A stretch of 64,000 bases of DNA from Pseudomonas phage Pa_WF01. A program made the position numbers and the translations under genes. This document shows positions 14,265 through 64,000 of this stretch, in pieces. Under the pieces are notes generated by a model. That model was not told where the DNA came from. It worked only from the letters and a program-made list of their open reading frames with translations, and did no database searches. Position 1 is the first letter of the stretch. Each line of letters opens with the position of its first letter. The stretch lies in the sequence record OQ848593.1; one strand, 5' to 3'.

Positions 14265-14281
14265 AGCGTACGGAGTACGCT
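14265..14281. repeat. perfect hairpin AGCGTAC-GGA-GTACGCT, copy 1
   Basis: Identical 17-mer at 17038-17054. Overlaps the stop codon of the - strand gene 14280..14504. Confidence 0.7.
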
Positions 14282-23603: not shown

Positions 23604-23694
23604 GATTCAGGTTCCTTGTAGGGAGAGGTAGTAGATTCAGATCAGAAGTGGTTCAGCCAGAAGGCCATTACACAGGCGTAGCCTGCTCTTGCTC

Positions 23695-23880: not shown

Positions 23881-23952
23881 GATGAAATTCCTAAGTAAAC
23901 AGTGAGTTGAGATGGTTTGGATTACCACCCCATGGCCGTAGGCCATGAGTAC

Positions 23953-26373: not shown

Positions 26374-26540
26374 GGTTGATACCTATAGAGGACTATGAAG
26401 TAAGTACAGAATCGAATACCACTCCATCACCGAAGGTGTAGAGGAACATCAGACACTACCCAAGTAGAGATAGGGATACGGTGTGTATCGTGTAGATGGG
26501 AAAGTGATGACAAGGTATAGGGTTGAGAAAGGTAGAGATG

Positions 26541-26600
26541 ATGAGGATAGACAATGTAGTTGAATGCACTGCACCACCCCACTATCTCCCCTATCCTCAT
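26541..26600. repeat. 10-bp inverted repeat ATGAGGATAG...CTATCCTCAT separated by 40 nt
   Basis: Direct reading, inside a non-coding region. Confidence 0.5.
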
Positions 26601-26688
26601 ACACACGAGAGACGAGTTACTGTCAGGTGAAGAGTAATCTCACAGAGAGTATCCCTTCCTTCCTACAACCTACTGTCCCTGAGAGAGA

Positions 26689-26727
26689 TGTGTGCTTTGT
26701 GTGTGCTCTTGATCTTATGTGTGCTCT
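26689..26727. repeat. three direct copies of TGTGTGCT(T/C)T spaced 11 and 18 nt apart
   Basis: Direct reading, inside the 400-nt non-coding region. Confidence 0.55.
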
Positions 26728-26765
26728 GAAAAGGTAAGCCCCCACTCCGTGTTAGGGAGTGAGGG
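26727..26765 (-). terminator. imperfect 10-bp stem hairpin with CTTACCTTTTC tail after gene 26779..27033
   Basis: Inverted repeat CCCCCACTCC...GGAGTGAGGG with one mismatch. Confidence 0.4.
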
Positions 26766-26778
26766 ACTTGGGGTAGGG

Positions 26779-27033
26779 TTAAGCCTTGGCCTTGGTACGT
26801 TCCTTGCGGACAGACTCGACAGCTTCGGTGAGACCCTTCTCCTGAAGTTCCTGAGCGTTCTCGATGTTGAGCAGTGCGATGGCTTGTTCGCGTTGCAGAC
26901 GAGCCTTGTTGTTGAAGTGAGCAGACTCTTCTTCAGCCCACTCGGTTACGTTCTCGGCAGCCTTGGTCAGGTTAGTGACAGCACGGAACATGGATTCCAG
27001 CATAGCGAAGAATTGGTTGAGAGCTTTGAACAT
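26779..27033 (-). CDS. hypothetical protein flanked by two large non-coding regions
   Basis: 84 aa. Stop is followed on the - strand by an imperfect 10-bp-stem hairpin. Confidence 0.45.
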   Translation of the reverse strand: MFKALNQFFAMLESMFRAVTNLTKAAENVTEWAEEESAHFNNKARLQREQAIALLNIENAQELQEKGLTEAVESVRKERTKAKA

Positions 27034-27364
27034 GGTAGTACTCCAGAGTAGTGAGATGTTGATGTGAGGACAGGATTAATCCACAGCACAGCCGAAGGCT
27101 TCTCTTGTTCTAGAAGTACAGACAGTTGATTGGGTAGAAGGAGAGTTAAACAAGGTGGGGTAGGTAGCGCGGGAATTCCAAAACTCAAGAGGTACCGGGG
27201 GGGATAACCGGATTTGGAGAGCCGCAGACTGAAGTACTGAATCCGTACTTAGCTAAACGAAAATCCCTCAGATCCGCGATAGCTGAATCCAGACTTCTAT
27301 GATGAAAATCCCTACAACCCAAATCACTTCCATCTCCCCAAACCAATCCCTTTCCCCCTAGCTC

Positions 27365-27449
27365 CCATAACCCATAGCTGAGGTTAAGTCGCCAAGCACC
27401 GAGCGCAGCGAGGTGGGCAGGATGACTGGTCCGAAGCTATGGGTTATGG
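27365..27449. promoter_or_regulatory. element A: 15-bp inverted repeat CCATAACCCATAGCT/AGCTATGGGTTATGG enclosing a 55-nt loop that carries GAGCGCAGCGAGG (27401..27413)
   Basis: Direct reading. The same 13-mer recurs at B and C in the same orientation, also inside inverted repeats. Confidence 0.55.
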
Positions 27450-27496
27450 ATACCTGTGGATATCTATAGCCAAGTTATCCACAGGATATACACACT

Positions 27497-28147
27497 CTAC
27501 TCCTTACCTTGGATGTAGAAGTGGATGTCCTTCCAGGAATCCTTGAAGGTCTTGAACTTGACTGGTGCTACGAAGGTCAAGCCAGTGGTCAGGTTGGTAG
27601 TAACACCGGTGAACAAACCAGTAGCCTCAGCCCAATAGACCTCCAGTCTGAAGTTCCTTACCTGATCACGTTGGGTCAGTACTCCAAGGTTCTCCTTCAG
27701 TAGCAGAGGAGCCTTGACCCAATCCCTTGCATCACGGAAGACAGGATCGAAGTCTGCATCCATGAAGGTACTCTCCATTCTGAGTGTCGTACCTCGGATG
27801 GTACCTACCCAGTAGAACAAGCCATCCTTCTTAACGATATCAGCCTGCTTACGAGAACCACGACTGGCAACCCTGCACAGGAAACTCTCCCTGTTCTCTT
27901 CAGTAGAGGTAGCCTTAAGCTTGTCCTCCAGTTCTTTTACCTTGGCTTCCAGTTCAGCTATCTTCTTCTCTGCTGGGTTGTTAGGTACTACATCAAACAG
28001 TTCAGCGTACTCAGCCAGCTTGACGTAAACCAAGCCAGTGTTGTCATCTCCTGCATTGTTGATGTACTCATGCCAGGAGATACCAAGGTCGATCTCTACC
28101 AGTTCTTGCCCTGGTAGTTTGATGTTCAGTACTGCTTTGTTGTTCAT
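27497..28147 (-). CDS. hypothetical coiled-coil protein (216 aa)
   Basis: Start MNNKAV, preceded by GCGAGGCTTAGACTCA. Confidence 0.5.
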   Translation of the reverse strand: MNNKAVLNIKLPGQELVEIDLGISWHEYINNAGDDNTGLVYVKLAEYAELFDVVPNNPAEKKIAELEAKVKELEDKLKATSTEENRESFLCRVASRGSRKQADIVKKDGLFYWVGTIRGTTLRMESTFMDADFDPVFRDARDWVKAPLLLKENLGVLTQRDQVRNFRLEVYWAEATGLFTGVTTNLTTGLTFVAPVKFKTFKDSWKDIHFYIQGKE

Positions 28148-28200
28148 TGAGTCTAAGCCTCGCGCGCGTTGAGGTGGGGAGTAGGGAAGCCTCGCGCCTG

Positions 28201-28229
28201 CGGCCCGAGTCAACCCCGAGCGGAGCGAG
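28201..28229. promoter_or_regulatory. element B: GTCAACCCC-GAGCGGAGCGA-GGGGTTGAC (9-bp stem) carrying GAGCGGAGCGAGG, followed by CGAGG-GTAATT-CCTCG
   Basis: Lies ~55-80 nt upstream of the start of 27497..28147. Direct repeat AAGCCTCGCGC x2 sits just downstream (lower coordinates, 28148-28187). Confidence 0.55.
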
Positions 28230-28290
28230 GGGTTGACGAGGGTAATTCCTCGTGGTACCCTTGGTATTACTCACCCACGGGGGATTACCT

Positions 28291-28311
28291 ATATATTATA
28301 TAGGGGGGAGA
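28291..28311 (-). promoter_or_regulatory. AT-rich TATATATTATATA-GGGGGG motif (reads CCCCCCTATATAATATATA on the - strand)
   Basis: Contains TATAAT-like hexamers. A similar motif is at 63748..63762, also upstream of - strand genes. Confidence 0.4.
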
Positions 28312-33500: not shown

Positions 33501-35693
<2,193 letters not shown>

Positions 35694-55484: not shown

Positions 55485-55614
55485 AGTGAAGTTCCTTCTG
55501 GTTGGGTGTAAGGGATGGAGTGCTCTGGTCTGGACCCCATTGCGGGGTGGTGGGTGTACCCGTTGCAACGGGCCAGAGCACTCCCTTATGCCTACTGGTT
55601 CAATAGACATAAGA

Positions 55615-55637
55615 AAGCCAGCTGGGGTAGCTGGCTT
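55615..55637. other. hairpin AAGCCAGCT-GGGGT-AGCTGGCTT in a 280-nt gap
   Basis: 9-bp perfect stem. Confidence 0.4.
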
Positions 55638-55784
55638 GGTCTACAGTGGCATCAGTTAAGGGAGGTGGTAAACGGCCCCTTGGATCGAGGGGGGACAAGG
55701 GGGACTTGGTAGTGGTATCCAGGGGCCGATGAGGTGGTAAGAGGTTGTCTCCACTTCATGGTTCTCAACTTACAGGAGGCTGAC

Positions 55785-55940
55785 ATGGCAGTCAACACTA
55801 AAAAGAGTCCGCCTACCCGTAACCATTACGAGAACTTCAGAAAAGGAATGAAGGTAGTGACGTATCAGCGGACAAAAGGGAATGCTCTTTTTACTGTGGA
55901 CTGTGATCCTGCGGAGGCTGTTGGCCTTCACGCATGCTGA
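55785..55940 (+). CDS. possible small antisense-oriented ORF (51 aa)
   Basis: CAGGAGGCTGAC precedes the ATG. Lies in a 280-nt gap between - strand genes. Confidence 0.3.
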   Translation: MAVNTKKSPPTRNHYENFRKGMKVVTYQRTKGNALFTVDCDPAEAVGLHAC

Positions 55941-63762: not shown

Positions 63763-63858
63763 ACTCTCACCCCTCTTCTTTCGAAGGGGTTCGCCCCTGG
63801 AAGGGGCCGTCCCAGGGCGACCACTAGCGCTCACCCTCCCCCTTCTCCATCCAGGGAA

Positions 63859-63931
63859 GGGGTCAGGTGAAGTGGTCGCCCGAGGAGCGAGCGCAGCGAG
63901 GCCCGCAAGGGATGACCCGTAACCTGACCCC
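63859..63931. promoter_or_regulatory. element C: 10-bp inverted repeat GGGGTCAGGT/ACCTGACCCC enclosing a 53-nt loop with GAGCGCAGCGAGG (63889..63901)
   Basis: Same architecture and orientation as element A. Lies upstream of the - strand unit starting at 63709. Confidence 0.55.
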
Positions 63932-63942
63932 TGACCGGGGGA

Positions 63943-63958
63943 AATTGAATATTCAATT
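63943..63958. repeat. perfect 16-bp AT-rich palindrome AATTGAATATTCAATT
   Basis: Direct reading; operator-like dyad. Confidence 0.6.
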
Positions 63959-64000
63959 ATTCCTTCCGCCTATCCACGCATCCACTCCCGTCTCGCTCTG

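Follow-up and report, generated by a model that had tools for sequence, protein, structure and literature searches.

The DNA analysed here, which we refer to as the window, is a stretch of 64,000 nt from Pseudomonas phage Pa_WF01 (sequence record OQ848593.1), and the subject of this study is a family of hairpin-forming elements that lie between its genes. The window is from a Litunavirus of the LIT1/PEV2 type: 71 N4-like phages of Pseudomonas aeruginosa that belong to this genus (LIT1, PEV2, DEV and others) match the region with 82-92% identity, and relatives for comparison were drawn from GenBank phage records. The window is oriented as the reverse complement of the LIT1 and PEV2 records. The direct terminal repeat of these two phages (655 bp) is present as a single copy, at 26576-27232, which indicates that the window comes from a collapsed or circularly permuted assembly; the physical left end of the genome maps at ~27232. 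Element A (27365-27449, + strand) lies 3′ of the stop codon of gp90, at 133-218 bp from the terminal-repeat boundary (27232), and element B (28209-28237, + strand) lies ~70 nt upstream of the gp90 ATG (28147). On LIT1 (length 72544), the motif of B maps to 70927-70939, between gp89 and gp90, and that of A to 71757-71769, between gp90 and the right repeat, which starts at 71890. Element C (63851-63939, + strand) is located in intergenic DNA from which two operons diverge, the tail-fibre operon and the operon that encodes gp56/57, an exonuclease, a primase, a Sak4-like protein and a protein that binds single-stranded DNA (SSB); this replication operon (exonuclease/primase/annealase/SSB) is downstream of C. 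Element C and a fourth element, D, map to about 35.4 kb of a LIT1-type genome. As originally predicted, A, B and C are all in non-coding DNA and upstream of - strand genes.

The elements share a motif, GAGCGSAGCGAGG, i.e., GAGCG(C/G)AGCGAGG, which has exactly three matches in the 64 kb, all on the + strand (A, 27401-27413; B, 28218-28230; C, 63889-63901). None of 100 dinucleotide-preserving shuffles of the window contained a match (expected number 0.00), and when two mismatches were allowed, just two extra hits appeared in the window, at chance level. The original prediction of three copies that read the same way is therefore borne out, with exact coordinates for A and C and an error of 8 nt for B, which had been placed at 28210-28222. 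The perfect inverted repeats of 15, 9 and 10 bp were also correctly sized, and A and C do lie inside them as claimed; the final two G of the motif in B belong to the stem and not to the loop. The number three applies to the window; in PEV2, LY218, phPLST and VL1, a fourth copy, D, occurs in inverted orientation at 116 bp from C. A scan of the whole PEV2 genome revealed exactly four copies, all intergenic, with the core of D at 35304-35316 on the PEV2 + strand, opposite to C. By these counts, the occurrence of the motif is not random.

A relaxed-motif scan of LUZ7, PEV2 and N4 yielded only chance hits in coding regions, and LUZ7 has a single copy of the motif, at 35048-35060, which is of the D type. 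A 44-nt probe taken from the core of C had matches in at least 72 records of Litunavirus, and every record listed was hit twice, at C and at D; in Luzseptimavirus genomes it had a single, partial match, and the hits in unrelated GC-rich phages were chance fragments only. Position 13 of the motif is not conserved in C, being T in LY218 and deleted in phPLST. Each Litunavirus genome has four members of the family, three in the window (A, B and C) and one just beyond its end (D), and the motif family is confined to the Migulavirinae of P. aeruginosa.

The motif coincides with a compact hairpin. In the purine-rich strand, the core is built outward from a GNA triloop by two G:C pairs, a tandem G.A/A.G mismatch (context 5′-Y-GA-R-3′) and a closing pair; it reads C-GA-GC-GCA-GC-GA-G in both A (27400-27412, + strand) and C (63888-63900, + strand), according to the sequence and the predicted fold, and the predicted folds of A and B, ((..((...))..)), match this pattern. 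The Watson-Crick stem next to the loop comprises the two G:C pairs only, and beyond the mismatch, pairing continues for 4 bp in A, for 9 bp in B and for ~1-3 bp in C. The centre of the loop is C, G or T across copies and genomes. The closing pair covaries, being C:G in Litunavirus and T:A in the four Luzseptimavirus genomes LUZ7, Ka3, KPP21 and PA152 (GAGCGCAGCGAAG preceded by T), and the stems beyond the core are unrelated in sequence yet still pair (CACC/GGTG in A, GTCAACCCC/GGGGTTGAC in B and GTGTC..GACAC in LUZ7). These variations of the loop centre, the closing pair and the outer stem support the hairpin. Homology among elements A, C, D and the copy in LUZ7 extends over ~45 nt (GTCGCC...core...GCA.GGATGAC), and each of the four has its own outer palindrome arms. 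A census of large inverted repeats identified comparable ones within genes as well, and the outer repeat alone is therefore not diagnostic.

Element A is an imperfect palindrome of 85 nt with the core hairpin at its apex. The outer arms, CCATAACCCATAGCT (27365-27379) and AGCTATGGGTTATGG (27435-27449), pair perfectly over 15 bp and, when extended, over 26 nt with 81% complementarity; the inner helices are AGTC/GACT, GCC/GGC and the CACC/GGTG mentioned above. Folded as single-stranded DNA, A is far more stable than its shuffles (z = -4.7), and its loop centre (27406) is C in nine genomes and T in Ps1.JH. A conserved, AT-richer inverted repeat, CCTGTGGATATCT/AGTTATCCACAGG (27453-27485), is situated between the gp90 stop codon and A. 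Element B is a hairpin of 29 nt, in which a 9-bp stem (GTCAACCCC, 28209-28217; GGGGTTGAC, 28229-28237) directly flanks the core GA-GC-GGA-GC-GA. Its fold scores z = -1.65 against shuffles, its loop centre is G or T among the genomes, and the stem contains a bulged T in YH6 and Ps1.JH. On the upstream side of B, an invariant block (28243-28304) contains a hairpin, CGAGG-N6-CCTCG (CGAGGgtaattCCTCG), and a perfect AT-rich palindrome, CCTATATATTATATAGG (28288-28304), with TATAAT on the - strand. The block also has three GGTAAT/ATTACC-like repeats, and it could be a promoter for the host RNA polymerase or an operator of gp90. Between B and the start of gp90, a degenerate relative of the A core (AAGCCTCGCGCGCGTTGAGGTGGGGAG, 28155-28181) is 74% identical to 27394-27420 and is poorly conserved across genomes.

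Element C is an imperfect palindrome of 89 nt with the motif in the centre. Its outer arms pair over 18 nt at 83%, which includes a perfect 10 bp (GGGGTCAGGT, 63859-63868; ACCTGACCCC, 63922-63931), and its fold as single-stranded DNA gives z = -3.5. It is followed by a perfect 16-bp AT palindrome, AATTGAATATTCAATT (63943-63958), which is the centre of symmetry between C and D; in PEV2, C and D are 33-nt inverted copies with 85% complementarity that are placed symmetrically about AATTGAATATTCAATT, and the same layout is found in LY218, phPLST and VL1. The end of the window falls inside the outer arm of D, so that the initial 32 nt of this element (63969-64000, - strand; cf. PEV2 35263-35361) are included, with the arm CCTATCCACGCA and part of the spacer, and the core, CGAGCGCAGCGAG on the - strand, would start ~6 bp beyond the window. 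In LUZ7, a different AT-rich palindrome occupies the position of AATTGAATATTCAATT. The LUZ7 counterpart of C (35130-35230) has kept the palindrome (GTGTC...GACAC, together with outer arms) with a diverged apex, GGCGCCAGCCGCACGCC, that is without the motif, so that across the genera only the D-type copy, which adjoins a late promoter, has been retained. A G-rich tract downstream of C, GGAGAAGGGGGAG (63836-63848, - strand), is identical to the spacer between the -35 and -10 boxes of the LUZ7 late promoter PL8; G-rich tracts also follow A and D, which suggests, as far as the sequence tells, that palindrome and G-tract together are a duplicated unit.

All five copies (A, B, C, D and that of LUZ7) obey one strand rule, namely, the purine-rich strand is the template of the genes on its 5′ side, which are - strand genes for A, B and C and the tail-fibre operon for D. 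The spacing to a second conserved feature is also fixed. In A, C, D and the D-type copy of LUZ7, the sequence Y-G-G occurs at +12 to +14 from the loop centre, within a box of the form CTYGGnnGAC. In A, this box is CTTGGCGAC (27388-27396, - strand), as read from the sequence, and G13 and G14 from the loop centre are 27393 and 27392, which would be the predicted initiation site if A is a promoter. In C, it is CTCGGGCGAC (63875-63884, - strand), with G13-G15 at 63881-63879, and boxes of this type recur as CTCGGCGGAC in D and as CTCGGGGGAC in the copy of LUZ7. When the copies are aligned by eye, the counterpart in B, CTCGGGCCGC (28200-28209, - strand), is shifted by 4 nt because the stem of B is longer; its Y-G-G is at 17-19 nt from the loop centre, with G-G at +17/+18.

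The textbook example of promoters that are present solely in the form of extruded DNA hairpins comes from the N4-like phages. The early promoters P1-P3 of N4, which are used by the virion RNA polymerase (vRNAP), are template-strand DNA hairpins (Glucksmann 1992, Davydova 2007, Gleghorn 2008, reviewed in PMC4496689). In the 70-kb genome of N4, hairpin-embedded GCGNAGC occurs only at 99, 568 and 4557, in each case on the strand that serves rightward genes as template (gttgcGAAgcaac, aagaagcGGAgcttctt and aagctgcGGAgcagctt), and the heptamer is GCGAAGC at 99 and GCGGAGC at 568 and 4557. The elements described here resemble these promoters in being template-strand hairpins with a three-nucleotide G-N-A loop closed by C:G within the heptamer GCGNAGC, in having a conserved start-site template C at a fixed distance and in their implied dependence on non-duplex DNA; the heptamer of B, GCGGAGC, is the same as that of the N4 hairpins at 568 and 4557. 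The contacts of N4 vRNAP with its promoters are A/G at -11, G at -10, G at -8 and C at +1, with a sheared G:A within the loop (PMC4496689), and -8G, -9C, -10G and -12A are present in every copy of our core, which also matches the sheared G:A of the N4 loop. The base at -11 is G in B alone; A, C and D have C there, and some genomes have T. The elements differ from P1-P3 in the distance to the start (13 here, 11 in N4), in the architecture (two Watson-Crick pairs and then tandem G.A within a palindrome of 85-90 nt, in contrast to stems of 5-7 bp in N4) and in location: the N4 promoters lie at the injected left end, whereas the elements lie at the right end and in the middle of the genome.

The kinship with N4 hairpin promoters that the original prediction proposed is thus sustained by the heptamer, the bases at -8, -9, -10 and -12, the template strand and the Y-G-G; the identity with the three early promoters is not. 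The early promoters Pe1-Pe3 of LIT1 and PEV2, the only ones listed, were predicted by Ceyssens 2010 (Table S2), and their sequences are found elsewhere in the window, all on the + strand: Pe1 (agccGAAggct) at 27094, inside the terminal repeat, Pe2 (catggccGTAggccatg) at 23938 and Pe3 (caggcGTAgcctg) at 23678. A fourth hairpin of the early type, caccGAAggtg, which is not on that list, is at 26432 (+ strand). All four of these canonical early hairpins have T-G-G at +12 to +14 on the coding strand. We therefore rejected the possibility that the elements are the canonical early promoters. Nor do A and B lie in the early region, as had been supposed; the two elements fall within the last ~1.2 kb of unique sequence that precedes the right terminal repeat, and thus lie at the other end of the genome, and none of A-D is at the left end, which is injected first. 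From the core, the strand rule and the spacing, we tentatively read the elements as strand-specific hairpin signals of the N4 type that would be recognised by a phage polymerase, a reading that we hold at somewhat less than even confidence.

Hairpin promoters of this virus subfamily have been mapped in LUZ7, for which 46 transcription start sites (TSSs) have been mapped by ONT-cappable-seq, with hairpin promoters named PE1-PE9 and PM1-PM4 (Putzeys 2022, bioRxiv Table S2). The early TSSs (PE1, PE5, PE7 and PE8) are at +13 from the loop centre, and the middle ones are at +14/15 (Putzeys 2022). The ten mapped hairpin promoters have plain Watson-Crick stems with coding-strand loops TTC, TAC, TCC or GTCC, and none has tandem G.A; the loops of PM2-PM4 are TCC, and that of PM1 is the 4-nt GTCC (Putzeys 2022). 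Template-strand triloop hairpins and a G start at 13-15 nt from the centre are common to these promoters and to our elements, the stems of the middle class are GC-rich, and the loop of B is GGA, as in the middle class. The differences are the plain stems and the GAA, GTA or GGA template-strand loops (4 nt in PM1) of the LUZ7 promoters, as well as the absence of the motif from all 46 mapped TSSs. Compared with the middle type of LUZ7 (GC-rich, a stem of at least 6 bp, a loop of 3-4 nt and a G at ~14-15 nt), B is a loose fit, with 13 stacked pairs when the G.A pairs are counted, a GGA loop and a G at +17; in A, C and D, the loop is GCA and the start would be at +13.

Homologues of the LUZ7 promoters sit elsewhere in the window, and the elements are separate from them. 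The homologue of PM2, gcccctGGAaggggc (63793-63807), that of PM3 (59699) and those of PE7/PE8 (17286/17045 and 14272) are all template-strand hairpins with GGA loops. The elements are not homologues of the mapped middle promoters, those of PM2 and PM3 being at 63799 and 59699. A division in which GGA loops are middle and 13-mers are early was also rejected, as GGA loops occur in both classes of LUZ7 (PE7, PE8 and PM2-4), none with the motif. The PM2 homologue is located between C and the first gene, and C does not, as was originally stated, head the primase/SSB operon alone. The PEV2 record calls this homologue a 'terminator', the T2 and T7 'terminators' of LIT1 are the same hairpins as GGA-loop promoter homologues, and the hairpin at 14272 is the start of PEV2 sRNA_29.1; judged by these annotations and sequences, GGA-loop hairpins may act as terminator and promoter at once.

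These comparisons bear on the idea that the elements are ordinary mRNA promoters, a third hairpin class that would be read by vRNAP or RNAPII-Drc and would serve gp90 from B, the right repeat (the gp01 copy) from A and the tail-fibre operon from D, with C adding to the expression of the replication operon. The same core, the same strand rule and the +13 G-G geometry are what such promoters should have. Moreover, the PEV2 record notes that gp86-gp90 are 'transcribed in middle and late infection', the middle promoters of LIT1 are unidentified (Putzeys 2022), and the LUZ7 hairpin PM4, which feeds the right-end genes, is absent from Litunavirus, so that a local promoter such as B would be needed. 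However, at the LUZ7 copy of the motif (35048-35060), there is no TSS in either direction and no transcription termination site (TTS) among the mapped ends, a result that argues directly against an ordinary promoter, and the LUZ7 TSSs on the Crick strand are all late and mostly sigma70-like. The replication operon already has its PM2 homologue downstream of C, the small RNA (sRNA) annotated in PEV2 does not start at C, and the plain stems of the ten LUZ7 promoters are unlike the tandem G.A core. On balance, we consider mRNA promoters unlikely. The preprint of Blasdel 2018 has no phage-side map.

The strength of conservation was measured around A and B as the fraction of variable alignment columns in ten Litunavirus genomes. 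Element A has 3/86 variable columns (3.5%), the inverted repeat beside it 4/46 (8.7%), element B 2/40 (5%) and the 58 nt on the upstream side of B 0/58 (0%), compared with 38% in the gp90 coding sequence, 42% in the gp90 leader and 48% in the DNA between A and the repeat boundary. In five genomes, element C has four variable columns out of 95, and the AATTGAATATTCAATT region has none out of 27; over the whole 390-bp C/D intergenic region, 0-4% of the columns vary, in contrast to 9-32% in the flanking coding sequences. On these alignments, the elements are under strong purifying selection.

The contrast between conserved elements and variable surroundings might also be expected if A alone were a packaging or terminus signal, comparable to T7 pacB/phiOR, or if the elements were inert recombination 'linkers' that flank exchangeable modules (gp90 and the tail fibre). 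The short distance from A to the terminal-repeat boundary fits the former; the bracketing of the highly variable gp90 by the invariant blocks of A and B fits the latter, as does tail-fibre recombination in Litunavirus, which is documented (PMC9786124). Nevertheless, the same core occurs in the middle of the genome (C and D), where a pac site would be harmful, and the DNA at the repeat boundary is variable (48%), with no motif-like sequence at either boundary of the terminal repeat. Linkers, for their part, leave the covariation of the hairpin, the strand rule and the N4-type core unexplained. We regard both versions as very improbable. Two observations on this neighbourhood may be added. From the repeat boundary to A, a 45-bp direct duplication, GAAAATCCCT (27259-27313, with copies at 27259 and 27304), makes the spacer longer than in LIT1 and PEV2, and this spacer is the most variable stretch of the region. 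The gp90 gene (27497-28147, - strand) is an open reading frame of 216 amino acids for a hypothetical protein, annotated as D-alanyl-D-alanine dipeptidase in PAP02; an IMG/VR search with gp90 returned matches to PEV2 and LIT1 only, and its variability, far above that of the bracketing non-coding blocks, is the pattern expected of an exchangeable module.

Another possibility is that the elements act as RNA, as domains of PEV2 sRNA_55.1 or as 3′/5′ stabilising hairpins of read-through transcripts, in which case the DNA motif would be the template only. sRNA_55.1 (35254-35508, defined by RNA-Seq) includes D as well as C and stops at the hairpin that follows, which is of the PM2 type and is called a terminator in the PEV2 record. 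Elements A, after the gp90 stop, and B, after gp89, are positioned where 3′ stabilisers would sit, long palindromes fold as RNA too, and a change in an arm of VL1, from T:A to T.G, would be tolerated in RNA. Against this, RNA of the Watson strand would carry the pyrimidine version of the core (C-UC-GC-UGC-GC-UC-G, with U.C mismatches) at A, B and C and the purine version at D and in LUZ7, and no single RNA motif is therefore conserved. A search with the Rfam 15 covariance models gave only sub-threshold chance hits (CRISPR-DR and mir-885), there is no U-tract, and no 3′ or 5′ ends were mapped at the LUZ7 elements; the boundaries of sRNAs defined by short reads are, in addition, imprecise (Putzeys 2022, on LIT1 data). 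RNA-level elements are accordingly improbable in our estimation. An intrinsic terminator was rejected because no T-run follows any copy on either strand and no TTS is found at the LUZ7 element. A MITE-like element (miniature inverted-repeat transposable element) was rejected because the outer arms of A, C, D and LUZ7 are unrelated and flanking duplications are absent.

The position of D next to a late promoter raises a further alternative, according to which the elements are sites for a phage protein that binds hairpins or cruciforms (a switch regulator or a cofactor that binds single-stranded DNA) and controls the neighbouring promoters: the late tail-fibre versus the middle replication promoter at C/D, that of gp90 at B and the repeat-borne Pe1 at A. 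The late tail-fibre promoter has its -35 region next to, or overlapped by, the outer arm of D in both genera; in LUZ7, the arm CCGGTAGGGTATAGGG is the first part of the 50-nt sequence upstream of PL8, and TATACT is found at the same distance from D in Litunavirus. A regulator would also be in keeping with the recurrence of the PL8 spacer tract downstream of C and with the near invariance of the 390-bp divergent region, and it would account for the missing TSS and TTS at the LUZ7 element. However, the core is not a duplex palindrome, which makes a dimeric regulator that binds duplex DNA unlikely, and no candidate protein is known. Furthermore, A has no conserved promoter nearby downstream (48% variable columns), and the match to the N4 heptamer and the spacing of Y-G-G would have to be a coincidence. 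We consider such a regulator quite unlikely.

Returning to hairpin signals read by a phage polymerase, their more specific form would be that of dedicated hairpin 'replication promoters', with C/D as an internal bidirectional origin and A/B as an end-proximal origin or a packaging-linked site; we give this specific form a low probability, although it is the role that we consider most likely for such signals. The core, extruded or present in single-stranded or supercoiled DNA, would be read by a phage single-subunit polymerase, since such polymerases are the only known readers of N4-type promoter hairpins; vRNAP would be the likeliest, and RNAPII-Drc would be the alternative. RNA would start at the conserved Y-G-G, 13 nt away and toward the adjacent genes, and the short transcripts, which would not be mRNAs, would serve as primers. 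We would prefer a priming role to an mRNA promoter because the LUZ7 transcriptome is negative at its copy, because a separate, conserved promoter of the PM2 type already serves the replication operon, because an AT palindrome separates the oppositely oriented C and D ahead of the replication genes and because A and B are end-proximal and adjoin AT palindromes. This is an architecture of the origin type, with C/D about AATTGAATATTCAATT before the exonuclease/primase/SSB operon and AT palindromes beside A and B. In N4 itself, vRNAP is reportedly required, on genetic evidence, for replication. The transcription machineries of N4 have likewise been implicated in DNA replication (N4 review).

Two kinds of known systems offer a precedent. 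T7 has 'replication promoters', phi1.1A/B at the primary origin with an AT-rich region, and phiOL and phiOR near the genome ends, and C/D as an internal bidirectional origin together with an end-proximal origin at A/B would be comparable to this arrangement. In T7, too, promoters of the phage RNA polymerase are used for priming or packaging and not for mRNA, one lies by an AT-rich segment near replication genes, and the other sites are just inside the terminal repeats and point endward. The T7 promoters are, however, 23-bp duplex sequences of demonstrated function, whereas the function of the hairpins described here is wholly inferred. The second precedent is provided by initiation signals on single strands, such as the origin hairpins of G4 and phiX with d(GCGAAGC), Frpo of the F plasmid and sso of rolling-circle plasmids. 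These signals are also long imperfect palindromes with a conserved apex that act as single strands, on one strand, in primer synthesis, and the GCGNAGC mini-hairpin occurs in such origins. They differ in their use of host primase or RNA polymerase and in belonging to single-stranded DNA replicons, and there is no homology beyond the heptamer.

Several observations weigh against recognition by a phage polymerase and against the replication role in particular. With regard to the hairpin, only two Watson-Crick pairs adjoin the loop, compared with 5-7 in N4, and the local outer stem of C is weak, with G.G and A.C mismatches. A pyrimidine occupies the loop centre of A, C and D, although N4 vRNAP needs a purine at -11; the early promoters of Litunavirus have A or T at this position, so that the N4 rule may not transfer. 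No extra copies of the motif were found in the N4 genome. Nearest-neighbour folding revealed no clear asymmetry between the two strands (-21.8 vs. -20.9 kcal/mol in A, -21.4 vs. -18.3 in C and -24.1 vs. -24.8 in D), a comparison that is uninformative because the parameters omit sheared G.A pairs and GNA loops. With regard to transcripts, the missing mapped ends at the LUZ7 copy would fit priming only on the assumption that short or DNA-linked RNAs escape ONT-cappable-seq. The tail-fibre operon of LUZ7 starts at PL8 (34978), which is sigma70-like and late and lies 62 nt past the predicted site, and sRNA_55.1 of PEV2 spans D and C and does not start at them. The C-type partner in LUZ7 is without the motif, and the single copy that is left is awkward for a two-armed origin.

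Other large inverted repeats in the window are found at 55517-55584 and 55789-55903 (12 bp perfect; 19 nt at 89%). The region that contains them (55517-55903) is homologous to the orf69-orf70 sRNA cluster of LUZ7 and to PEV2 gp67.1, which is described as 'very strongly transcriptionally expressed'.

The elements described here appear to be new: Ceyssens 2010 has only Pe1-3, the PEV2 record marks the C/D region solely as an sRNA, and no description of the motif was found in accessible papers or records. They constitute a second, nearly invariant family of N4-type hairpins outside the early region, with a tandem-G.A stem and long palindromes of their own, that went unseen in the only primary-transcriptome map of the subfamily, and this family would widen the range of recognition of the polymerases or of another hairpin-reading protein.

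Litunaviruses, including LIT1, PEV2 and DEV, are in active use as therapeutic phages, and the elements provide concrete, mutable candidates for the replication origin or origins and for signals near the terminal repeats. If they are ordinary promoters instead, they would supply the Litunavirus promoters that Putzeys 2022 left unidentified. If the elements are replication promoters, they would be the first defined origins of the N4-like Pseudomonas phages and would give a mechanistic account of why the transcription machinery of N4 has been implicated in replication.

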